In this document: in pieces, positions 149 through 21,952 of the stretch
Layout: every line of letters starts with the position of its first letter
Position numbering within the stretch: position 1 is the stretch's first letter
DNA from: a virus
Strand: one strand, 5' to 3'
DNA length: 21,952 nt
UHGV virus genome: UHGV-0246870
Notes under the pieces: generated by a model
Databases searched by the model: none
Told to the model about the DNA's origin: nothing
Seen by the model: the letters and a program-made list of their open reading frames with translations, nothing else
Position numbers and translations under genes: made by a program

Positions 149-477
149 CAGTTCACCACCTGTTTAAACTCTGCGCTGAACTCAACACGCAACATACTGA
201 CCCGCGACGACCATTTTGCGCAGGTCACCTTTATCTGCCGGTAGCCATAAGGCGGCGTCCACAGAAAGGCTTTCCAGCCCCCGTGCTCTGCCAGAAACGA
301 CTCCAGCGCCGTGGCCTCCCAACGGGGGACAGAAAGCGTCACGCTGTACGTTTTCAGGTCGGCATTCAGCCCGGCAGGCGCTCGCTGGGAGTAACCATCC
401 CCAAAACGTACTTCCCTGACTAAAGGAGTCGAAGCCACCTCCATACCAGGTTTTACCTTCCAGTGAAACGTTTTCAT
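148..477 (-). CDS. M: Minor tail protein M
   Basis: 109-aa ORF MKTFHWKVKPGM...SAEFKQVVN, near full-length match to lambda gpM by memory. Lies directly downstream of the tape measure gene, as in lambda. Confidence 0.85.
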   Translation of the reverse strand: MKTFHWKVKPGMEVASTPLVREVRFGDGYSQRAPAGLNADLKTYSVTLSVPRWEATALESFLAEHGGWKAFLWTPPYGYRQIKVTCAKWSSRVSMLRVEFSAEFKQVVN

Positions 478-3400
478 CGCCCGCCTCCTGAATACAGTCC
501 GCCATCACGGGACTGCTGTTGCATAAAGTCCGCTGCCGCTTTTTTCCCGAGATCATAAACCACCTTCAGGGCAGCCGGACCTATCTGCCCGTTCGTGCCG
601 TCGTTATTGATCTCGATGTTGTACTGCGGGGCAAACATCGCCATACCTGAACCACCAATATCCGCCACAACCCCCAGCTTACCGTCAGCACCACGACGCA
701 GTGGCAGAATGGCTTCAGGTCCAGCTTCCCCCATCACACCCGCGCCTTTTGCAAAAGCAAAAAATGTTGGACGGTTAACCACCGTGCCACTGTAGCGACT
801 CAAATCAGCAGACTGATAAACACCGCCATCAGCATTAGCCGTAAAGCCAAATAAAGAACCGACGCCCTTTACCGCCTGCATCATAGTCATCTGCGCCATA
901 ATTTTTGCCATATCTGACAACAGGGAAGAGGTGAAGGATTTGAAATTGAGTTTGCCAGTGGTACAGAATGTCGCCAGCCCGTCGCTCGCACTGCTGAATG
1001 CCGATGTAAACATTTGTTCAGCAGTTCCTGCCGCATTATCCGCTTCTGCCGTAAAATTCTGAAACGCACGTATGGCACCGTTTTTCCAGTTACCCTGCAC
1101 AACTTCAAGCTGTTGCCAGTAGCGGCGATTCTCATTCAGTTGTCGGTTCAGGCTCTCCGTCAGCGCCTGCTCGGCCTTTCTGTAGTCATCCGTGTTATAT
1201 GTCCCTTTCTGCTCACTATCCCGCCTCAACTGCTCCAGCTGTTGCTGGTATTTCTGGCGAAGACTCAGTTGTACCTGATACCGCTGCCGCAGCTGTTCGC
1301 CCATACCCACCGTGGCGATATCCAGGTCATGTTGCTGACGCAGAGTCCGTTCCTCTTCCGCCAGCTGGCTGGCAAGCTGAATTGTTTTTTTCTTCAGCTC
1401 ATTAAGTGCCGTCTGTTTCTGAAGCTCCTGCTGTTTTACATCCAGCAGCGTCAGTGCCTGAATCAGTTCATCTTTACGGGCCAGCACACTCTTTTCATCT
1501 GCCGTCAGTTTTTTTCCGTCCAGGTCGCTGATGCGCTGCTGCAGAGCCAGAAGCTGTTTATGCGCTTCTGTCATCTTTTCAGTGGCAATGCCTGCTGACT
1601 GTCTGGCAGCAGCAATCTGCCCTTCCACCTGTGCCTGTTGCTGACTGTACTGCAGCAATAACCGGGTGGCCTCATCATTACGGGGAGCGCGTGTTTTTTT
1701 CTTAATGGCTTTTTCGTAACGTTCATTTTCACGCTGTATTGCCGCATCCCTGACGGACTGATCGGCGTACTGCATGGCATTGATGCGCGCGATTTCCCGC
1801 TGATGCCGGAGCGCTTCCGTTTCATTCATCCGGTTCAGTGCAGCATTTTCAGCATTACGGCGTTTCTGTTGCTCCTGATAATTCCGCTCTGCCTGCTCTT
1901 TTGCATCCTGCAAATCCTTCTGGCGTTTTTTCTCCTGAAGATCGTTAAGACGCTGCTGATCGTACTCCACCTGAGTGGATGAATTCGTCCACGAAAACTT
2001 TTTCGCCCGTTGAATTTTTTCCTGTAAGGCAGCTATCTGCCCATCCAGTGAATCTTCACGACCGATGTTCAGGGCCGCGTCCCAGAAACGGCTCCACAAA
2101 TCAGACAGATATTTCAGCGTACTGCCCAGCGCATTAAGATTATTATCAATATCCGCAGTACGCCGACCGGTTTCCTCTGCCAGTGCAGACATAGCTATCC
2201 GTGCAGCATCACTGGACCGTCCCTGTTCCCCAAGGACGCGTATCTGCTCAAGCTGAGTGGCAGTAAGAAAATGCAGCTCATTGTCCAGAGCCTTCGCGGC
2301 ATTTACAGGATCATCCTTCAGCCGCTTAAACTGATTTATGGTATCGCTGACCGACTGACCAACCGATCGCTCCATCTGTGCGGCAGCTCTCGCCACCATA
2401 CCGATATCGTTTCCACGAAATGCACCACTCCCCACCACCTGAGCCAGCGCACCGGCTGCAGCATGTTGCGTGATACCATTCCCGGAAATAGCACGACTGA
2501 GCGTCCACAGCTGCCCGGCAGTGACTCCGGCATAATGCCCCGTCAGCGACAGCTGGCGGTTAAATTCTTCCCCCTCCTTCTGACCGTCATACCAGGCTTT
2601 ACCCAGACCATAGACGGCCGCGGCAATACCGCCAATAACCCCGCCCAGCATCATACCTTTCGGTGACATCAGTGTGTCTATCCATCCGGCACGGTTAGCC
2701 AGCGTTATCCCGGATCCCCTCAGCGCCCCTAAATTGCCACGAGCCAGTTCACCTATCAGAACGCCGATCTCCCGGCGAGCCGCTGCACTTTTCAGCCCCA
2801 GCGAATGCGTGGCTTTTCCTGCCTGCTCCATTTTGCGGATATACACTTCTGCAGCACTGCTTACCCCCAGCTGGGCAGCCTTAGCACGAAGCAACTCAGA
2901 AGAAGAAAGATTCTGGCGGGTTGCCTGCTCTTTAAGCTGACGGATAAACGCCACTTTCTGTCGGGTAGCCTCTTCCTCAGCCTGTGTAAGAACACGGGTT
3001 TTCGCAGTAACCTCAGAAATCAGCGCCAGATAATCCTGCTGACCAATCCCGCCACTGTTTCTGGCCTGTCGGATCTGCTGCTGAATACGCTGTAATTCCT
3101 GCAGCCCCGCACTGGCCTGTTTCACACTGTCAATCTGACGATAAAACGCGGCAGCCGCTTTATCCTGAGCCTCCGCCAGAACCATGGCCTGTGCCTGTTC
3201 CTCGCGCATTTTCTGGTTCAGCGCCTCCATGCGCTGGCGGGTTTGCTCCACCTCGCTGGCCATGCGTTCATGAGCCTGTGCGCTCTTCTCCACCGTCTGC
3301 GCATGGACGAATGCGGCTGTTGCAGCCGAAGAAGCCGCCTGCGTTGTCTGCCGGGCGGCCTGAGTCTGACGCTCCATAAAACGCTGCATACGGGCAGAAG

Positions 3401-3515
3401 ACCGTTCTGCATCGCTGGCTGCACCATTCAGAAGGTTTTTGATACGGGGAATTTCATTTTTAAACTCTGCCGCATCAATCCCTAAATCAATGACCAGGTT
3501 GGCTATCTGGTCCAT
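474..3515 (-). CDS. H: Tail tape measure protein (gpH-like)
   Basis: About 1013 aa, long Q/E/R/A-rich coiled-coil region, C-terminus NNDGTNGQIGPAALKVVYD...DGGLYSGGGR resembles lambda gpH C-terminus. Start placed at ATG 3515 (MDQIANLVIDLGID), preceded by GGAGGTG; the track ORF begins further upstream at 3545. Confidence 0.9.
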   Translation of the reverse strand: MDQIANLVIDLGIDAAEFKNEIPRIKNLLNGAASDAERSSARMQRFMERQTQAARQTTQAASSAATAAFVHAQTVEKSAQAHERMASEVEQTRQRMEALNQKMREEQAQAMVLAEAQDKAAAAFYRQIDSVKQASAGLQELQRIQQQIRQARNSGGIGQQDYLALISEVTAKTRVLTQAEEEATRQKVAFIRQLKEQATRQNLSSSELLRAKAAQLGVSSAAEVYIRKMEQAGKATHSLGLKSAAARREIGVLIGELARGNLGALRGSGITLANRAGWIDTLMSPKGMMLGGVIGGIAAAVYGLGKAWYDGQKEGEEFNRQLSLTGHYAGVTAGQLWTLSRAISGNGITQHAAAGALAQVVGSGAFRGNDIGMVARAAAQMERSVGQSVSDTINQFKRLKDDPVNAAKALDNELHFLTATQLEQIRVLGEQGRSSDAARIAMSALAEETGRRTADIDNNLNALGSTLKYLSDLWSRFWDAALNIGREDSLDGQIAALQEKIQRAKKFSWTNSSTQVEYDQQRLNDLQEKKRQKDLQDAKEQAERNYQEQQKRRNAENAALNRMNETEALRHQREIARINAMQYADQSVRDAAIQRENERYEKAIKKKTRAPRNDEATRLLLQYSQQQAQVEGQIAAARQSAGIATEKMTEAHKQLLALQQRISDLDGKKLTADEKSVLARKDELIQALTLLDVKQQELQKQTALNELKKKTIQLASQLAEEERTLRQQHDLDIATVGMGEQLRQRYQVQLSLRQKYQQQLEQLRRDSEQKGTYNTDDYRKAEQALTESLNRQLNENRRYWQQLEVVQGNWKNGAIRAFQNFTAEADNAAGTAEQMFTSAFSSASDGLATFCTTGKLNFKSFTSSLLSDMAKIMAQMTMMQAVKGVGSLFGFTANADGGVYQSADLSRYSGTVVNRPTFFAFAKGAGVMGEAGPEAILPLRRGADGKLGVVADIGGSGMAMFAPQYNIEINNDGTNGQIGPAALKVVYDLGKKAAADFMQQQSRDGGLYSGGGR

Positions 3516-3816
3516 AACGCACACCTCCGGAAATACCTTCCCCAAGATGCATCAGTTCTTCGTCCGTTCGCTCCGGTATCCCGTTCTCTTCCGGTAAAAG
3601 GCTGAAATCAGCCACCGCAGCATCACTGCTGCCGGACACCATTCTCACGATCAATGCCTTCAGCGAGGCAAACTGCGCATCCATCCACACATCACTGAAG
3701 CTCTGCATCCGGAAATAATCGCCCCACTCACCAAGCTCAGTGGCCGACATTTCCGACAACATCCGCCGCCAGTCTGCCCGCCGGAACTCCCGGGCAAGCC
3801 GCATGACAAACTGCAT
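3487..3816 (-). CDS. T: Tail assembly chaperone, T segment (expected to be made as a G-T fusion by -1 frameshift)
   Basis: ORF in the -1 frame relative to the G C-terminal frame, directly downstream of G and overlapping the H start. Frame is open upstream across the G stop. Position and size match lambda T. Confidence 0.65.
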   Translation of the reverse strand: MQFVMRLAREFRRADWRRMLSEMSATELGEWGDYFRMQSFSDVWMDAQFASLKALIVRMVSGSSDAAVADFSLLPEENGIPERTDEELMHLGEGISGGVRYGPDSQPGH

Positions 3817-3824
3817 TTCCCGCG

Positions 3825-4210
3825 TCAGGACTTTTCCGGCGTCAGCACCTCATGCTCCAAATCCCCGGCATTCTCAATGGCTCCCATACCGCTCAGCGAC
3901 AGAACCATCTCCGCCCCCGCTCCCAGGGCATCATACGACCATGTTGTAATAACGGATGCGCAAAGCGCCTCCACATCCTGAGACTGATCCGCATTCCACA
4001 GGGAGCGGGAAACCAGCCAGGCATTGATATCCATCCCCATCCGCAAAAAAGCAATCTGTCGTTCAGCCTCCGGCAGTTCTCCCTCCCCGGCATCAAACTT
4101 TGCCGTTCGCTGCTGAACAAACGCAGATATTCAATTCTCTGCAGCCCGGACAGCTCACTGAGCACCACGGACTGTTTTTCATAATTAAACGTGCCCTGTT
4201 TCAGAAACAT
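3825..4210 (-). pseudogene. G: Tail assembly chaperone G, interrupted by an apparent 1-nt frameshift near 4122-4126
   Basis: N-terminal MFLKQGTFNYEKQSVVLSELSGLQRIEYL (frame from ATG 4210) resembles lambda gpG. After EYL the frame decays into W/R-rich sequence. The G-like continuation (AFVQQRTAKFDAGEGELPEAERQIAFLRMGMDINAWLVSRSLWN...EVLTPEKS) is in the adjacent frame ending at 3825. Span is 386 nt, not a multiple of 3. Confidence 0.6.
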
Positions 4211-4272
4211 CATGTTCTCCACCTGCAAAAAAAAGCCCCGGATAACCGGGGCAAATGATGAGTATCGTCCTG

Positions 4273-5016
4273 TTAACCTGCGGCGCTGACAGTCACCGCA
4301 GCCACAGCCACAAAATTCCCATCAGCGGTCATGCCCACAATGCTGACACTGCCCTGCTTCACGCCTTTCACCGTGGCCACAAGCCCGCTCAGGGTCACCG
4401 TGGCAGTCTGTGGATCTGACGAATGCACACTGATCGCTTTGTCACTGGCTCCGTCAGGTTTTACTGTAAAGGTCAGCGTGGTGGTTGCTCCCTCTTTTAC
4501 ACTGGCAGATGTCGGTGCCACCGTCAGCCCGGTAACGCTCACGGTTTCAGTGCCTTCCTCTGCCAGATACGGACGCCCCACACCGCTGATTTTCACAGTG
4601 CGGGTCATCACGTCTTTTGAGGCAATGGTTTTCCCCAGTGAGCTCAGCCAGCCGCGGAAAACATCAACAGTGCCGTTGGGATATTTGATACGAAACGCGC
4701 AGACTTCACCGGAGTCGAACAACTGAACCAGTTTTTTCTGCCCACTGTCACCCGGACGCCAGGCCAGCGTCGCCGAAGTATCACCAACGGATTTCTGCCC
4801 CTGGGTTGTCGTTTTCCAGTCTGCATCTTCATCATCGAGATAAGTGTCATCTTCTGCATCAGCGGTCATTTCGCCAGGTTGCAGATCCTTCACCATCGCA
4901 AGACGCAGCCAGTCAGTGTCCGACAAAGGGTTCGCAAACGCATCGCCGTTGCCGGTATACATCCAGAACGTCGTCCCCGCACCTTTCGTCTTTGCCAGTG
5001 GATTTGGTGTGGTCAT
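4273..5016 (-). CDS. V: Major tail protein (gpV-like) with C-terminal Ig-like (Big_2-type) domain
   Basis: Start ATG 5016 preceded by AAGGAGGTGGTA. C-terminal roughly 90 aa T/V/S/A-rich beta-type segment typical of a Big_2 Ig-like domain as in lambda gpV. Position between U and G. Confidence 0.85.
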   Translation of the reverse strand: MTTPNPLAKTKGAGTTFWMYTGNGDAFANPLSDTDWLRLAMVKDLQPGEMTADAEDDTYLDDEDADWKTTTQGQKSVGDTSATLAWRPGDSGQKKLVQLFDSGEVCAFRIKYPNGTVDVFRGWLSSLGKTIASKDVMTRTVKISGVGRPYLAEEGTETVSVTGLTVAPTSASVKEGATTTLTFTVKPDGASDKAISVHSSDPQTATVTLSGLVATVKGVKQGSVSIVGMTADGNFVAVAAVTVSAAG

Positions 5017-5026
5017 TACCACCTCC

Positions 5027-5428
5027 TTAATTCGTGTACGTGATCTGGTACGTGATTTCCGCCATCGCCCAGGTGGCCATCTCATTATCACGTTGATAGT
5101 TAAAACCGAGTGGGTTCAGGGTGTCGATGAGTCCGGAAAGGGCCGGCATATCACTCAGGGCCGGAAAAATGGTGCTCTCCATCCACGTATCCAGCTCCGA
5201 ATCCGGCGCCTGTGCCCGGATGAAGACGGCAATATGCAGAACAGCCTGCCAGTCATCTTCATCCGTCATTTTTCCGGTGTACTGAGCATCACTCAGCCAC
5301 ACCGCCACGGCAGGCAGTTCCTGCGCATCAATAAATGCCGGAAGCCCGTCAAAAAACGTGGCGCTGTCTCCACACTGTTCCCGAAGGCGTGCCAGTACGG
5401 CCTGGCGGATTTGTGTATGTCGGTTCAT
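5027..5428 (-). CDS. U: Tail terminator protein (gpU-like)
   Basis: MNRHTQIRQAVLARL...ATFFDGLPA...PAVAVWL...PDSELDTWMES...ITYQITY matches the lambda gpU pattern. ATG 5428 overlaps the Z stop (ATGA). Confidence 0.8.
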   Translation of the reverse strand: MNRHTQIRQAVLARLREQCGDSATFFDGLPAFIDAQELPAVAVWLSDAQYTGKMTDEDDWQAVLHIAVFIRAQAPDSELDTWMESTIFPALSDMPALSGLIDTLNPLGFNYQRDNEMATWAMAEITYQITYTN

Positions 5429-6003
5429 CGGGTCAGCCATAACCTCAGTTGTTGTTTCAGTGCATACCCCAGCTGTTTCGGCATTTCCGCAGCAATAATG
5501 CGGTCGCGGGCATCTTCAAATGCCTGTGTCAGCGGTCCGGACAGCGGGACTTTCACCACATCAATGGGGTAACGATTTTTGCCATCAATACGCCGCATCA
5601 CATGCCAGCGACCATTCGCCAGTTGCTGAATAAACGCATCCCGGAAAAGATATTTACCCACCTTCAGCACACTGCCACGGTACTGCAGTTTTCCACCACG
5701 CCGGGCCAGTCTGACCCGGGCTGTCCCCAGCTTAATAGCGGGCAGATTGCCCCGGTTAACGCGGATCCTGGCCGTCATTTTTCCTGACGGACTGGCTTTA
5801 AACACCCGGACACGCTGACGTACCAGTTTCAGGGGGATCCCTTTCACCTGGTTATCTCCCGCAACGGTATTCCCGGCAACCTGCCGGGTGGCGACCGAGA
5901 CCGCTTTCTGTGCCACACGGTTTATCGCCCATGCGCTGGCCTGTGGCACCATACGGGTATCAAGGCTGTTCAGATTACGGATGGCATTCTCAAGCCCCTT
6001 CAT
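5425..6003 (-). CDS. Z: Tail completion protein (gpZ-like)
   Basis: 192 aa, MKGLENAIRNLNSL...NGRWHVMRRIDGKNRYPIDVVKVP...LGYALKQQLR, close to lambda gpZ by memory and same length. Confidence 0.8.
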   Translation of the reverse strand: MKGLENAIRNLNSLDTRMVPQASAWAINRVAQKAVSVATRQVAGNTVAGDNQVKGIPLKLVRQRVRVFKASPSGKMTARIRVNRGNLPAIKLGTARVRLARRGGKLQYRGSVLKVGKYLFRDAFIQQLANGRWHVMRRIDGKNRYPIDVVKVPLSGPLTQAFEDARDRIIAAEMPKQLGYALKQQLRLWLTR

Positions 6004-6014
6004 CCCACACCTCT

Positions 6015-6290
6015 TTACTCAATAAAGATCATTGGCTTACCGTTAAAGCGTTCATGCCGTGTGACCGTCCATTGTTGTCCGTCATAAACAACGCGATCCC
6101 CGCGCCGTGGGCGGTATCCCGAAGAAAACACCACCAGAGAGACCGCAGGTCCGGACAGAGCATTCAGCTCTGCCAGTGTTTCTCCCGGGATCACAGTCAT
6201 ATCGGCATCATTAATCGAGGCTGTCTTTCCCATCTTTCTGACCGTGATCGCATCCATACGCGCTGCCAGCCGGGAAAAGGGATCAGACAT
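6015..6290 (-). CDS. Head-tail joining / head completion protein (FII-like)
   Basis: 91-aa ORF at the FII position between a head protein and Z. ATG 6290 overlaps the upstream stop. Only weak recalled similarity to lambda FII. Confidence 0.5.
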   Translation of the reverse strand: MSDPFSRLAARMDAITVRKMGKTASINDADMTVIPGETLAELNALSGPAVSLVVFSSGYRPRRGDRVVYDGQQWTVTRHERFNGKPMIFIE

Positions 6291-6606
6291 TGAGTTTTAC
6301 CGGCACTTCTTCTGCACTGGTTCCGGCATCTGCCCAGACAACCCCGACCAGCGGATCAGAGCCGCTGTTAGTCAGCTGAACTTTTCCGGACTTCAGATAA
6401 ACCTTCTTACCCGTTTTCATGTCATCCGTTTTCAGCTTAGGCAGCATAAACACACCTTCGGTCATGCCGTCGCCTGTTTCACCCTGTGGAATATCGGTCA
6501 GCGCCACCGCAAAAACATCACCCACCTGCACCAGATCTCCGCTGCTGATGGCTGCACTGGCAACAATCGCCACCGTTTTTCCTTCTTCTACAAAATTCTT
6601 TGCCAT
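6283..6606 (-). CDS. Small phage head protein, DUF2190-like (possible decoration or head-fibre protein)
   Basis: 107 aa from ATG 6606 (MAKNFVEEGKTVAIV...). Lies immediately downstream of the capsid gene. Gly/Val-rich small beta-type protein. Family assignment is from memory. Confidence 0.45.
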   Translation of the reverse strand: MAKNFVEEGKTVAIVASAAISSGDLVQVGDVFAVALTDIPQGETGDGMTEGVFMLPKLKTDDMKTGKKVYLKSGKVQLTNSGSDPLVGVVWADAGTSAEEVPVKLNV

Positions 6607-6692
6607 AACTGTCTCCGCACAGCCCCGTTCAGGGGCTGATTTCAGGTACAAAAAAAGCCCTTACGGGCCATCAGAGTTGTTGTCTGCGACGT

Positions 6693-8753
6693 TTACGCCG
6701 TACATTTCACCAGACCGCGGTGATCAACTGGCGCGACACCAGCGTCAATACGCACTTTCGTTGTCACGCCATCCACACTGAAGCCCTCCATCTGATCAAT
6801 ATATGGCGTATCCACACCGTTGAGATAAGCCACTTCGATGGTATCCGTACCTTTCGCCGCAGCCAGATAAAAGGTGGTCTGGCTGTTATCATCAAGACGA
6901 GGCTCTGCAATAACTGTCGCAAAATCTTTCACCGGGTTAATAATACCGGCGTTAATGTCAGCCCCCTTGACACTTGAGGAACGAATGACCTGGTTAGCAA
7001 CAGACTCCATCGCTGTCGGTACCAGTACGAACGCAGGACGAATATTCAGATGACGCTCCCCCTCTTTCTGAACGCGCATCAACTGACGGGCTTTATCCAG
7101 TGATGCCACGTCCATTGCAGCGTTCTCCAGTACGTTTGCATGTTTCGCTTTATCGAACAGGCTCACATTATCCGTGGAGATTTTCGGGTTAGATGTCAGA
7201 ATGGCATAAACCAGATCGGCAATCGTGGATTTTGCCGCACGCCCCAGTTTCATCGGAACATCGGTCAGCATATTCAGATCATCGTTGATAATGGCCTGAC
7301 GGGTGATGCTGAACAGTTCACCATAGGTCGCCAGTGCAATCGTGGCCTGTTTATCTCCGGTGGTGACGTATTTATATTCCGCCCCCTCACGCACCTGACG
7401 CAGAGCACTGAAGCCCCCCATCCCCACACGATGGGCAATTTTAAAATCAGACAACTGACCTTTCCGGGTCCACTGTTCGTAAGTCTCAGGGGCTTCTTCC
7501 CATCCCTGCAGAATGGCTTTGTTCGCGACATCCAGCAGAATATTACCGAAATCAGACGTACTGTGCGTAAACGCTGCCCCGACCATCTGCATCGGGTTAT
7601 ACCCGGAAACCCCAATCCCCCGTTCTGTCAGTGACATTCGGGCATATTCACGCAGGGTCATCCCGTTATAGACGTTATCCTGTTCACGCTCAGCAAATCC
7701 GGCACGCGCCATCAGCGCCTGACGGATCCCGTCCCCCACAAAATTACCGTTTCCAGCATAAATATGGGCCGGGGTATTTTTATTTGATGGTGAAAATTCC
7801 TTACCCATTTCGTTAAGTAATTTCTCACGGGCCTGCTCAAGCGAGCACTCCGGATCGGAAAGACAACTGGCCTGCAATGTCTGATAGCGCCCGCCAAACA
7901 TACCAAACAGTTCATTAATACCACTCACACGTGCTTTTTGCTCTGCCAGTACCTGCGCACGGATACTGCTTTCATCTGCGGAAGGTGCATTTGTGGTAGT
8001 CGCGGTTGTGGCAACCGGAGCCGTAGTCTGATCCTGTGTCTGAGATGCAGTATTTTTGTTTTCAGGTTCACGCGTTGCACTGTTGCGTGGCGGGATAATC
8101 ATATTTCGAATGGATTCCGGCATTTTTTTAAATTCCTCTGTACGTTTTGACTGAATACATGCCATTGCCTTAACGGCTGGCGTTACCTGGTCAGCAAATC
8201 CGTGTGCCAGACATTCGGCACCGGACATCCAGGTTTCATCCGCCAGCATGGCAGCAATTTCATCGGTGGTTTTCCCGGTTTTCTGCGCATAAGCAGGCAA
8301 CAGGACCGACTCAACTTTATCAAGCAGGTCGGCATAATCACGCATATCATCCGCATCGCCACCACTCACTCCCCATGGTTTATGGATCATCATGAATGCG
8401 TTTTCCGGCATGATGACGGGATCACCCACCATTGCAATGACCGATGCCATGGATGCCGCGACACCATCCACATAAACAGTGATGGACGCCCCATGATTTT
8501 TCAGCGCATTAAAAATGGCGATGCCTTCAAAGACATCGCCACCCGGTGAATTGATATGGAGATTAATGTGGATGATATTACCCAGCGCATTCAGATCGCT
8601 GACAAACTGCTTCGCCGTAACTCCCCAGAAACCAATCTCGTCATAGATATAAATATCTGCGTCACTTTTATGACCCGCCTTCATTCTGAACCAGGAATTA
8701 TTCTTCAGGCTGGCCTTCGGTTCGCCGCGAAACCACGCGTTCTGTTTCAGCAT
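6693..8753 (-). CDS. Prohead protease (ClpP/S14-like) - scaffold/linker - HK97-fold major capsid protein fusion
   Basis: Single roughly 686-aa ORF. N-terminal ClpP-like segment (IYIYDEIG...INSPGGDVFEG...MASVIAMVGD...MMIHKPWG), Thr/Ala-rich linker, C-terminal capsid-like domain. Start chosen at ATG 8753 with strong SD AAAGGAGGTGGTA; alternative ATG at 8684. Confidence 0.8.
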   Translation of the reverse strand: MLKQNAWFRGEPKASLKNNSWFRMKAGHKSDADIYIYDEIGFWGVTAKQFVSDLNALGNIIHINLHINSPGGDVFEGIAIFNALKNHGASITVYVDGVAASMASVIAMVGDPVIMPENAFMMIHKPWGVSGGDADDMRDYADLLDKVESVLLPAYAQKTGKTTDEIAAMLADETWMSGAECLAHGFADQVTPAVKAMACIQSKRTEEFKKMPESIRNMIIPPRNSATREPENKNTASQTQDQTTAPVATTATTTNAPSADESSIRAQVLAEQKARVSGINELFGMFGGRYQTLQASCLSDPECSLEQAREKLLNEMGKEFSPSNKNTPAHIYAGNGNFVGDGIRQALMARAGFAEREQDNVYNGMTLREYARMSLTERGIGVSGYNPMQMVGAAFTHSTSDFGNILLDVANKAILQGWEEAPETYEQWTRKGQLSDFKIAHRVGMGGFSALRQVREGAEYKYVTTGDKQATIALATYGELFSITRQAIINDDLNMLTDVPMKLGRAAKSTIADLVYAILTSNPKISTDNVSLFDKAKHANVLENAAMDVASLDKARQLMRVQKEGERHLNIRPAFVLVPTAMESVANQVIRSSSVKGADINAGIINPVKDFATVIAEPRLDDNSQTTFYLAAAKGTDTIEVAYLNGVDTPYIDQMEGFSVDGVTTKVRIDAGVAPVDHRGLVKCTA

Positions 8754-17933: not shown

Positions 17934-19724
17934 ATGAACAACCATTTAAAACTAAAACAAATTATGGCATCCGCTCAGATTGAGCCATTTATTAGACATA
18001 TTCGTTTCCCATTTTTCAAAAACCTCGCCGAAGGAAGCAAAATCGATTTTGATTATCCAGTCACGGCGTTGGTCGGTCAAAATGGAACGAATAAAAGCTC
18101 AGTTTTAAGAGCCCTTTTCGGCTCACCAAACAACTATTCATTAGGTAGCCTATGGTTTTCTACAGATGTGGATGAAATTAAAGACGGTGGTCGCTCAAGA
18201 TTCATTTATGGATATTATGATAAAGCTACTGATTCTATTGTTGAAGTAATCAAAACCCGAATTTCTAAAGAAAATGATCCTGACTACTGGGAACCTTCTA
18301 GGCCTCTAAAATCAGATAATATGGCTACTATGCCTGATACAATACTTTCGGATAACCAATTAAAAACACGATGGAAAGCCATTGATAAAAATGTAATCTA
18401 TTTAGATTTCAGAGCAACGATAAGTGCATTCGATAAATTCTTTTATCATTCTGACTTTCATACATATCCCAAGAAGGATTATCTTAGAAAACGCAGTCAA
18501 ATGCTAAGAGAAATCATCGATAACGATCTAAAAAAATATCAACCCCACAAAGGTAAAAAAGATAAACTCTTTGTCAATACTTTATTAGGCAAAAATAAAG
18601 TTGAGGCAATCAGCAAAATTTTAGGGCGAAAATACACTAGTATTAGACTTATCGAGCATTGCTTATTTACGAATGACAAAGCTCCAACAATTATACTTCA
18701 GTCAGAAAACTTAAAATATTCTGAAGCATTCGCTGGTAGTGGAGAATTCGCCGTATCTATTTTAGTACATAAACTAATAGACAGTCCAAACGCATCACTA
18801 ATTCTTTTAGACGAACCTGAAGTATCGCTTCACCCTTCAGCACAATGCCAATTAATGGAATTTTTATCTGAACAAGCAATTAAAAAGAAACATCAAATTG
18901 TGATATCCACTCATTCATCAACAATAGTAAAAGACTTACCGAAAAATGCTATAAAATTATTTTGCCTGAATGATAAATTAGGAAAAGTTGATGTTCTGCA
19001 AAATGTCAGCCCAGAAGAATCTTTCTTCATCCTTGGTGAGCGAATCGAGAAGAGAACAGTTATTGTAGAAGATCGCTTGGCTAAGAGGTTTGTAGAGAAA
19101 GCTCTTAAAGCAGGTGGTGAAGCATTATTAAACTCCTTTGAAGTCAAGCACTTTCCTGGAGGGGCCGGAAGTATTTTTCAAACTTTAGCAGCCCCATTAT
19201 GTGTTGCTAACGTTAAAAACGTTATTTTTTTGCTAGATGGTGATCAATCTATTGTTGATAACTACCCAACCTCTGACTCAATACCAGAAAACGAGAACCC
19301 TAATCTTCAGGATATTATAAAATCAATAACAAACCAAGACATCAAATTTAACTGCGATGGCTCTAAAGGTGTAGCTAATCATAGCCAAAAATATAAAATG
19401 CAAAGAGATTTCATCGATTTCATTCACGATAGCATCGGTTTCCTTCCTGTTTACACGCCTGAAATATTTCTTATTGAAAATGTCTATGGAGACTACAAGG
19501 AATATAAAGAATTAATTTCGAAAGACGTTCAAGATGCTAAACAAATTACTAAGGAAATTTGTAAACTCGATACTGGGCTGGATAATGTTACTAGTGATGA
19601 TATCTTTGAAACTCAAATTAGAATGCTAAATAAAATACCGAATGATCATGAAATGTTAACGAAAACTCGAGAGTTGCTGCAAATCTTTTTAGATAATGAT
19701 ACTATCAGACCAAGAGTGAGGTAG
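17934..19724 (+). CDS. OLD-family-like ATP-dependent nuclease candidate (N-terminal ABC/AAA ATPase, C-terminal Toprim-like)
   Basis: 596 aa. Walker A GQNGTNKSS, Walker B ILLDEPEVSLHP, H-loop ISTHS. C-terminal VIVED ... FLLDGDQS resembles the Toprim Glu and DxD motifs. AT-rich codon usage unlike the flanking phage genes. Confidence 0.7.
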   Translation: MNNHLKLKQIMASAQIEPFIRHIRFPFFKNLAEGSKIDFDYPVTALVGQNGTNKSSVLRALFGSPNNYSLGSLWFSTDVDEIKDGGRSRFIYGYYDKATDSIVEVIKTRISKENDPDYWEPSRPLKSDNMATMPDTILSDNQLKTRWKAIDKNVIYLDFRATISAFDKFFYHSDFHTYPKKDYLRKRSQMLREIIDNDLKKYQPHKGKKDKLFVNTLLGKNKVEAISKILGRKYTSIRLIEHCLFTNDKAPTIILQSENLKYSEAFAGSGEFAVSILVHKLIDSPNASLILLDEPEVSLHPSAQCQLMEFLSEQAIKKKHQIVISTHSSTIVKDLPKNAIKLFCLNDKLGKVDVLQNVSPEESFFILGERIEKRTVIVEDRLAKRFVEKALKAGGEALLNSFEVKHFPGGAGSIFQTLAAPLCVANVKNVIFLLDGDQSIVDNYPTSDSIPENENPNLQDIIKSITNQDIKFNCDGSKGVANHSQKYKMQRDFIDFIHDSIGFLPVYTPEIFLIENVYGDYKEYKELISKDVQDAKQITKEICKLDTGLDNVTSDDIFETQIRMLNKIPNDHEMLTKTRELLQIFLDNDTIRPRVR

Positions 19725-19727
19725 ATA

Positions 19728-20768
19728 ATGACTAAAAAGATACATGTATACGATTTTTTTTCCGGCTGCGGAGGCACTAGTGCAGGCCTAAAAGCAGTGG
19801 GTATGGAAATTATATTTGGTTTAGATATTGATCTAGACTCGTCTAATACCTTCAAGAAAAACAATCCATTAGCACATTTCATCAATGGTGATATCAAAGA
19901 TACACATGTTGAAGATATTAATCATCTAATTTCTGACTCAAAAAAATGTAAAGCCCTGACTTTGTTTTGCGGATGTGCCCCATGTCAACCATTCTCAAAA
20001 CAGAACAAAACACGGAACAACGACGATCCCAGGAAAGATCTCCTGACTGAATTTGCACGTTTTGTATCTTATTATGTTCCTGATTTCGTACTGATAGAAA
20101 ATGTGCCTGGAATCCAAAACGTCGATATCAATAACGGAAACTTCCAGAAATTTCTTGAAGTTTTAACTCATCATAACTACAACGTTGATTTTGGTGTTGT
20201 TCCTGCTTTGTGGTTCGGAGTTCCTCAGACCCGTGAACGTTTTGTTTTGCTGGCGTCAAGACACACACATATTAAGCTCCCACCCAAAACTCATGACGGA
20301 GTAGAAACTCCGTTTGCAACGGTAAGAGATTGGATCGGTAATTTACCACCTATAGCTGCAGGTGAAACTCATAAAGAGATAATTGATCACACAGCAGCCA
20401 GGCTGTCCGAACTGAATATTAAACGCATAAAAGCTACCCCAGAGGGAAAAGGAAGGGAGTCTTGGCCTGAGAATTTGATCTTAGAATGCCATAAGAAATA
20501 TAAAGGGCATACGGATGTTTATGGACGTCTTTCATGGGACAAACCTGCAAGTGGCTTAACGACTAGGTGTATAAGCTATTCGAATGGACGTTTCGGGCAT
20601 CCTGAACAAGACCGAGCAATTTCAGTTAGAGAGGCTGCGTTATTACAGACATTCCCATTAGACTATTCCTTCACGGGGTCGTTAGTATCAAAAGCAAAAC
20701 AAATTGGGAATGCGGTTCCTCCCAAGATGGCTGAAGCACTTGGGAGAGCTATAATTTCGTCGATTTAA
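19728..20768 (+). CDS. DNA (cytosine-5)-methyltransferase
   Basis: 346 aa with C5-MTase motifs: I FSGCGG, IV GCAPCQ (catalytic Cys), VI ENV, VIII QTRERF, X GNAVPP. ATG is 3 nt after the upstream stop, with GAGG within the upstream gene end. Confidence 0.85.
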   Translation: MTKKIHVYDFFSGCGGTSAGLKAVGMEIIFGLDIDLDSSNTFKKNNPLAHFINGDIKDTHVEDINHLISDSKKCKALTLFCGCAPCQPFSKQNKTRNNDDPRKDLLTEFARFVSYYVPDFVLIENVPGIQNVDINNGNFQKFLEVLTHHNYNVDFGVVPALWFGVPQTRERFVLLASRHTHIKLPPKTHDGVETPFATVRDWIGNLPPIAAGETHKEIIDHTAARLSELNIKRIKATPEGKGRESWPENLILECHKKYKGHTDVYGRLSWDKPASGLTTRCISYSNGRFGHPEQDRAISVREAALLQTFPLDYSFTGSLVSKAKQIGNAVPPKMAEALGRAIISSI

Positions 20769-21839: not shown

Positions 21840-21952
21840 CGTCTTTTCCTGTGGTGGGTTCTGTTGCTGGTGGGCGTGAGGCAGCGGCGCAAGATTTTTT
21901 GTGCGCTGTTTCAGTATGCTGGTGGCGGTCTGCTCTCCCGGTACGATGTCGC

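Follow-up and report, generated by a model that had tools for sequence, protein, structure and literature searches.

A single-nucleotide frameshift in the tail assembly chaperone gene G of an mEp460/cdtI-type lambdoid prophage

The tail assembly chaperone gene G of the prophage described here is interrupted by the deletion of a single base, and comparison with intact homologues confirmed that the frameshift noticed in the initial annotation was correctly observed. The stretch of DNA that was analysed (21,952 nt; hereafter the window) comprises the late region (head, tail and lysis genes) of a lambdoid prophage of the mEp460/cdtI type, which is encoded on the minus strand; its host is most probably E. 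coli. We consider it probable (approximately 80%) that the deletion is real in the DNA and is an ordinary, recent, gene-inactivating mutation. By analogy with lambda, the prophage is predicted to be freshly inactivated, i.e. tail-defective and unable to yield infectious particles.

Reading frames of gene G and the site of the deletion

Gene G starts at ATG 4210-4208 (minus strand), with an additional in-frame ATG at 4213. As now read, it forms an ORF (ORF1) encoding MFLKQGTFNYEKQSVVLSELSGLQRIEYL followed by 75 residues rich in W, R and C, which ends at TGA 3895-3893. The native part of ORF1 comprises 29 residues (MFLK...LQRIEYL), and the 75 residues that follow are out of frame. Relative to ORF1, the -1 frame opens at 4130, directly past TGA 4133-4131, and reads ISAFVQQRTAKFDAGEGELPEAERQIAFLRMGMDINAW...EVLTPEKS (ending ...LEHEVLTPEKS). 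The initial annotation had described a start at ATG 4210, a plausible reading as far as ...LQRIEYL, a switch to a W/R/C-rich stretch, and a continuation in the adjacent frame through ...EVLTPEKS to position 3825; frame reading bore out each of these elements, and all of the coordinates given were correct. The features of the tail module, including both parts of G, are presented in Table 1.

Table 1. Features of the tail module in the window (coordinates refer to the whole stretch)
Feature	Position	Strand	Details
Tape measure protein gene	474..3515	-	Intact, 1013 aa; would be the client of G and G-T, as gpH is in lambda
T frame	3487..3816	-	Intact, 109 codons from the annotated ATG; Pfam Phage_tail_T (PF06223), E 3.9e-15
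Presumed G-T programmed -1 shift site	3831..3839	-	CCG GAA AAG before UCC UGA (3839-3825); predicted function
Displaced rest of G	3825..4130	-	-1 frame relative to ORF1; starts ISAFVQQRTAKF, ends EVLTPEKS; stop 3827-3825
ORF1 (broken G as now read)	3893..4210	-	ORF list and frame reading
1-nt deletion site	4122..4126	-	Alignment; string check (22 loci); base-by-base comparison with L015 and L022
Intrinsic terminator-like hairpin between V and G	4227..4252	-	GCCCCGGTTATCCGGGGC then T8; hairpin 4252-4235
Major tail tube protein gene V	4273..5016	-	Intact, 247 aa; would be the partner of the T domain, as gpV is in lambda

Gene callers report only pieces of the displaced frame, starting at TTG 4046 (73 aa) or ATG 4034 (69 aa), and the 69-aa Phage_TAC_2 product was called in three loci (L012, L013 and L017). 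Exact-protein look-ups of the ORF1 product, in its 106-aa and 105-aa versions, retrieved no record, because the gene callers had skipped this ORF. An antisense ORF (3852-4184, plus strand) was also considered and was rejected as a gene: it has no Pfam match, it is annotated in no related record and its composition is junk-like.

An alignment was made of 490 nt of the window with three relatives, namely the E. coli prophages VTB97432v and ETEC1717 and phage mEp460. Where these have ATCTGGCGTTT or ATCTGACGTTT, the sequence of the window is ATCT-GCGTTT. At 4126-4122 it contains CTGCG (CTG CGT), and the homologues contain CTGGCG (Leu29-Ala30) or, in one relative, CTGACG; the missing base is formally one of two G's between 4124 and 4123. 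Re-insertion of one G restores a protein of 128 aa. The initial annotation had suggested the loss of one base within CTGCG, where an intact gene would read CTG GCG, and had proposed an alignment against intact lambdoid G genes as a check; this alignment places a single-base gap precisely there. The deletion is one identified base difference with respect to a large homologous set, and a chance expectation is not applicable to it.

Within the 811-nt G-T region, the sole other length difference lies in the T-run of the V-G terminator, which consists of T8 in the window and in its nearest relative (L015, see below) and of T6-T7 in the E. coli and mEp460 relatives. Records shorter than the 811-nt query (by a net 1 base) seemed contrary to a deletion in the window. 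This was resolved by the alignment, since the two extra T's in the terminator of the window outweigh the missing G. The V-G hairpin is annotated in mEp460 as a rho-independent terminator, and it may set the ratio of V to G/T/H expression.

Distribution and origin of the broken allele

Matches to the 811-nt G-T region with at least 80% coverage were found in 1,841 of 5,426 complete E. coli genomes and in 17 phage records, nearly all of them at 95-99% identity. When an 80-nt query centred on the deletion was used, none of the 1,834 matching complete E. coli records was identical to it; 1,833 of these records fell within the 95-99% identity band, and the best 30 of the 1,834 have 81 record bases per 80 query bases, i.e. 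one extra base. A deletion-specific 39-mer was absent from the GTDB representatives (one genome per species), the JGI metagenome contigs and IMG/VR. The string check of 22 related loci revealed CTGGCG or CTGACG in 19 of them; CTGCG is present in only three (L009/L012/L017 and L013), which are 100% identical to the window.

Beyond the window, the broken allele was found only in two contigs identical to it: (i) ENA ERZ27298380 k119_63505 (21,349 nt), corresponding to window positions 604-21952, and (ii) Logan contig SRR6060216_19427, corresponding to positions 925-11038 (100% identity in both cases). In each of these contigs only the 69-aa Phage_TAC_2 piece of G was called. The window runs 603 nt (positions 1-603) beyond the otherwise identical ENA contig k119_63505, the end at 21952 being shared; it therefore represents a further assembly or record, and the sample behind it is the same or a very similar one. 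A literature search for ERZ27298380 and SRR6060216, concerning a possible common sample, found no paper.

Near-identical copies of the prophage were identified by exact-protein look-ups with the tape measure, tube and terminase proteins of the window; the tape measure protein has an exact match in two other contigs with intact G. The prophage designated L015 (ENA ERZ28643684 scaffold_140, 54 kb) aligns with window positions 413-21952 with three mismatches and one gap in 21,541 columns, and L022 (Logan SRR29080179) exhibits the same four differences from the window over the 12.6 kb that it covers. The only gap of both relatives with respect to the window is the deletion in G, and both encode an intact 128-aa protein. 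The three SNPs comprise synonymous changes at 9841 and 12227, located in the portal and large terminase genes, and a Leu/Ile change at 12564 in a DUF1441 small-terminase-like gene. Since these intact copies come from other samples and differ from the window by only the deletion and three SNPs, the deletion is judged from the sequences to be private and very recent.

It is unlikely, yet has to be weighed, that the missing base reflects a sequencing or assembly error, in which case the true DNA would read CTGGCG, the prophage would be intact, and a low-coverage consensus or a read error would have been passed to each assembly of one run. One base and three SNPs in 21.5 kb separate the window from the intact copies, which is the look expected of a one-off error, and the allele is seen nowhere else in the databases searched. 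The three carriers are 100% identical in their overlaps, which is compatible with a single dataset; the two carrier contigs may stem from the same reads or sequencing run as the window. Several observations argue against an error. At least two assembly pipelines (a MEGAHIT-style ENA contig and Logan) agree, and their contig ends differ from each other and from those of the window; the k119_ naming of the ENA contig is taken by us to mean MEGAHIT. The deletion is the sole indel in 21.5 kb with respect to the nearest relative, and indels seldom enter the consensus of short-read assemblies. Its position is a GG dinucleotide and not a long homopolymer, unlike the signature of error-prone long-read or 454-type sequencing. 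In addition, the three SNPs mark the lineage of the window as truly distinct from the intact copies. A real mutation is favoured because the same sequence emerges from different assemblers. Contigs from metagenomes are consensus sequences, and the broken allele may share its population with intact ones.

Predicted consequences for tail assembly and possible rescue

In lambda, gpG is produced by standard translation, and approximately 1 ribosome in 30 slips by -1 at the sequence G GGA AAG near the end of G (listed in Table 1 of PMC3296357), which gives gpGT (PMC5009743; PMC3296357). Binding to the tape measure protein involves G as well as the G portion of GT, the T portion is what binds gpV, the tube protein, and lambda requires both gpG and gpGT (PMC5009743; PMC3296357).

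The corresponding part of the window is consistent with this arrangement. T, for which relatives carry the annotation 'phage tail assembly protein T', occupies the -1 frame; its reading frame opens before the G stop (GADAGKVLTREMQFV...), overlaps the 3' end of G and has no expression signals of its own. Members of this gene family normally produce T solely within the G-T fusion, of which it forms the C-terminal part. At the presumed shift site the -1 frame reads GCC GGA AAA GUC and continues into T, and all four aligned sequences have the same presumed slip site. In the sequence G GAA AAG, slippage from AAG to AAA in the A site is retained as in lambda, and the P-site GAA re-pairs imperfectly with GGA. 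No significant RNA structure was detected 3' of the G-T site (z -0.7).

The proposed course of inactivation is as follows. One G:C base pair would have been lost from the Leu29-Ala30 codons of G (CTG GCG to CTG CG), at a point 285 nt upstream of the presumed slip site. Ribosomes starting at the ATG of G would quit the native frame after residue 29 and terminate at 3895-3893. Because this stop lies short of the slip site, which would never be reached from the G start, neither full-length G nor the G-T fusion would be made, and T would be left with no expression route of its own. According to the lambda model, the tape measure protein becomes coated with G and GT, and recruitment of the tube protein falls to the T domain; the prophage would still package DNA into heads and lyse the cell, yet it would build no tails. 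A specifically tail-less phenotype is predicted because the other morphogenesis genes are full length: in comparison with relatives, this applies to the small and large terminase, portal, protease-capsid fusion, head-tail connectors, Z, U, V, T and the tape measure protein. This phenotype, which the initial annotation had also suggested as a possibility, is extrapolated from lambda, whose G is only 33% identical.

Two ways in which a real deletion might be more than an inactivating accident were considered. The first is that it has been kept as useful to the host, the virions being disarmed with the lysis genes, the methyltransferases and a defence-type ATPase-plus-C5-methylase cassette retained, or that it is partly rescued by low-level -1 slippage, so that the prophage would be leaky. 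This is improbable in our estimation; selection is not favoured by the data, because a single lineage is concerned and the event is extremely recent.

The second is that the frameshift is compensated, a -1 ribosomal shift between 4130 and 3895, or slippage of RNA polymerase, restoring enough G and G-T (a 'savior indel'). Corrective frameshifting has been documented in other systems (PMC5009743). The shift needed is -1, the direction already used at the G-T site, and G contains a run of T6 at 4050-4045 (minus strand; GCTTTTTTGCGG), at which re-pairing of an ORF1 UUU codon in the -1 frame is possible; TTTTCT stands in its place in the E. coli and mEp460 relatives. We nevertheless give this very little credence. 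A scan of ORF1 from the deletion to the stop revealed no canonical X XXY YYZ heptamer in frame; the XXXYYYZ heptamers that are present (TTTTTTG at 4050 and TTTCCCG at 4012) are both in the wrong phase for tandem slippage. Any downstream shift would also leave out-of-frame residues within the chaperone domain (approximately 24 if it occurred at T6). Moreover, T6 is present, with no mismatch, in L015 and L022. As it is common to these nearest relatives with intact G, the run is not compensatory and is unrelated to the frameshift. Efficient transcriptional slippage requires a run longer than T6. A slip by a single tRNA on UUU within the run is conceivable, and low-level spontaneous -1 slippage or internal initiation (at TTG 4046, ATG 4040 or ATG 4034) could yield traces of partial products.

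With an ordinary inactivating mutation as the preferred reading, the two short ORFs at 3825-4210 should be annotated as one frameshifted gpG pseudogene, and the prophage should be predicted to yield no infectious particles. It would illustrate cleanly how prophage decay begins, with one base lost relative to intact copies in other samples. In kind, this is already known: textbook lambda genetics covers G, its partner in the G-T frameshift and what follows when they are lost, and no new biology is involved.

Family assignment and comparison with known tail modules

The Pfam entry PF06894 (Phage_TAC_2) is described as 'Bacteriophage lambda tail assembly chaperone, TAC, protein G'. The repaired G protein matches positions 1-116 of the 126 of this profile with 133.7 bits (E 4.1e-39; cut-off 27 bits). 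ORF1 alone matches only positions 1-33 (with its residues 1-33; 41.1 bits), and the 73-aa downstream ORF alone only positions 50-116 (62.6 bits). In a BLASTP comparison with lambda gpG, the repaired protein shares 33% identity over 117 aligned columns (E 3e-16), and the alignment runs unbroken across the deletion site (LQRIEYLAFVQQ versus LQRIEHLALMKR). The gene is placed between the tail tube and tape measure genes, as is typical of the synteny of the family; the chaperone frame itself breaks after codon 29. From its sequence, we classify the locus as a pseudogene of the Phage_TAC_2 family and not as a functional member.

A single G gene is annotated in mEp460, cdtI, phi458, Ayreon, Tritos and HannyBb, as well as in all of the E. 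coli records listed, and it comprises 128-129 codons in all four annotated regions that were opened. The phages with a single-ORF G include laboratory-propagated ones. The notion that two genuine genes, a short N-terminal ORF and an independent one downstream of it, naturally make up G in this family can point to the lone 69-aa Phage_TAC_2 ORF annotated by gene callers on public contigs, but its chance is negligible and it is refuted by the alignment, the split Pfam domain and the walk against the nearest relatives: homologues outside the lineage of the window have one G ORF, the two pieces fall on consecutive parts of one Pfam domain, the 75-residue W/R/C-rich tail of ORF1 has no family match, and the nearest relatives differ at the site by exactly one base. 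The initial annotation had itself named such a family, with G really ending at the first stop and an unrelated ORF after it, as the finding that would speak against a frameshift; what was found instead were single-ORF homologues and one domain divided between two frames.

The window also contains, at 17934-20768 (plus strand), a two-gene cassette oriented opposite to the phage late genes and situated between the antiterminator Q gene and an N6/N4 methyltransferase gene. It encodes (i) a 596-aa AAA_15/AAA_21 ATPase, whose best PADLOC models are HEC-04 (2.7e-35) and ATPase-Toprim_I-B (1.2e-23), and (ii) a 346-aa C5 cytosine DNA methylase (PF00145, 2e-59; PADLOC MTase_II, 3.6e-91). The cassette is present in L015 and L017 and is missing at the same position in the related prophages L004 and L016. 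Judging from these matches, it looks like a moron of defence or restriction-modification type.

The tail module of the window shares with lambda gpG/gpGT (PF06894 and PF06223) the gene order V, G, T, H and the Pfam families. In both, T is in the -1 frame and overlaps the end of G, and the shift site contains the Lys codon AAG. It differs from lambda in that G is broken by a 1-nt deletion after codon 29. Furthermore, lambda G comprises 140 residues, compared with 128 in the repaired G of the window, and its slip site is GGGAAAG, compared with the presumed GGAAAAG. Much closer are mEp460, cdtI, phi458, Ayreon, Tritos and approximately 1,830 E. coli prophages (RefSeq 'gpG: phage tail assembly chaperone G'), which exhibit 97-98.5% nucleotide identity over the 811-nt G-T region. 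The flanking genes in these phages and prophages are identical to those of the window. All relatives that were aligned or string-checked, apart from the window-identical contigs, have the extra base and a single G ORF.

Point-mutated defective or cryptic lambdoid prophages of E. coli are similar to the window in carrying a single inactivating lesion in an essential morphogenesis gene, with the late operon otherwise intact. The window is free of IS insertions or deletions, and in comparison with defective lambdoid prophages it would represent the earliest stage of this process, with one indel and three SNPs in 21.5 kb.
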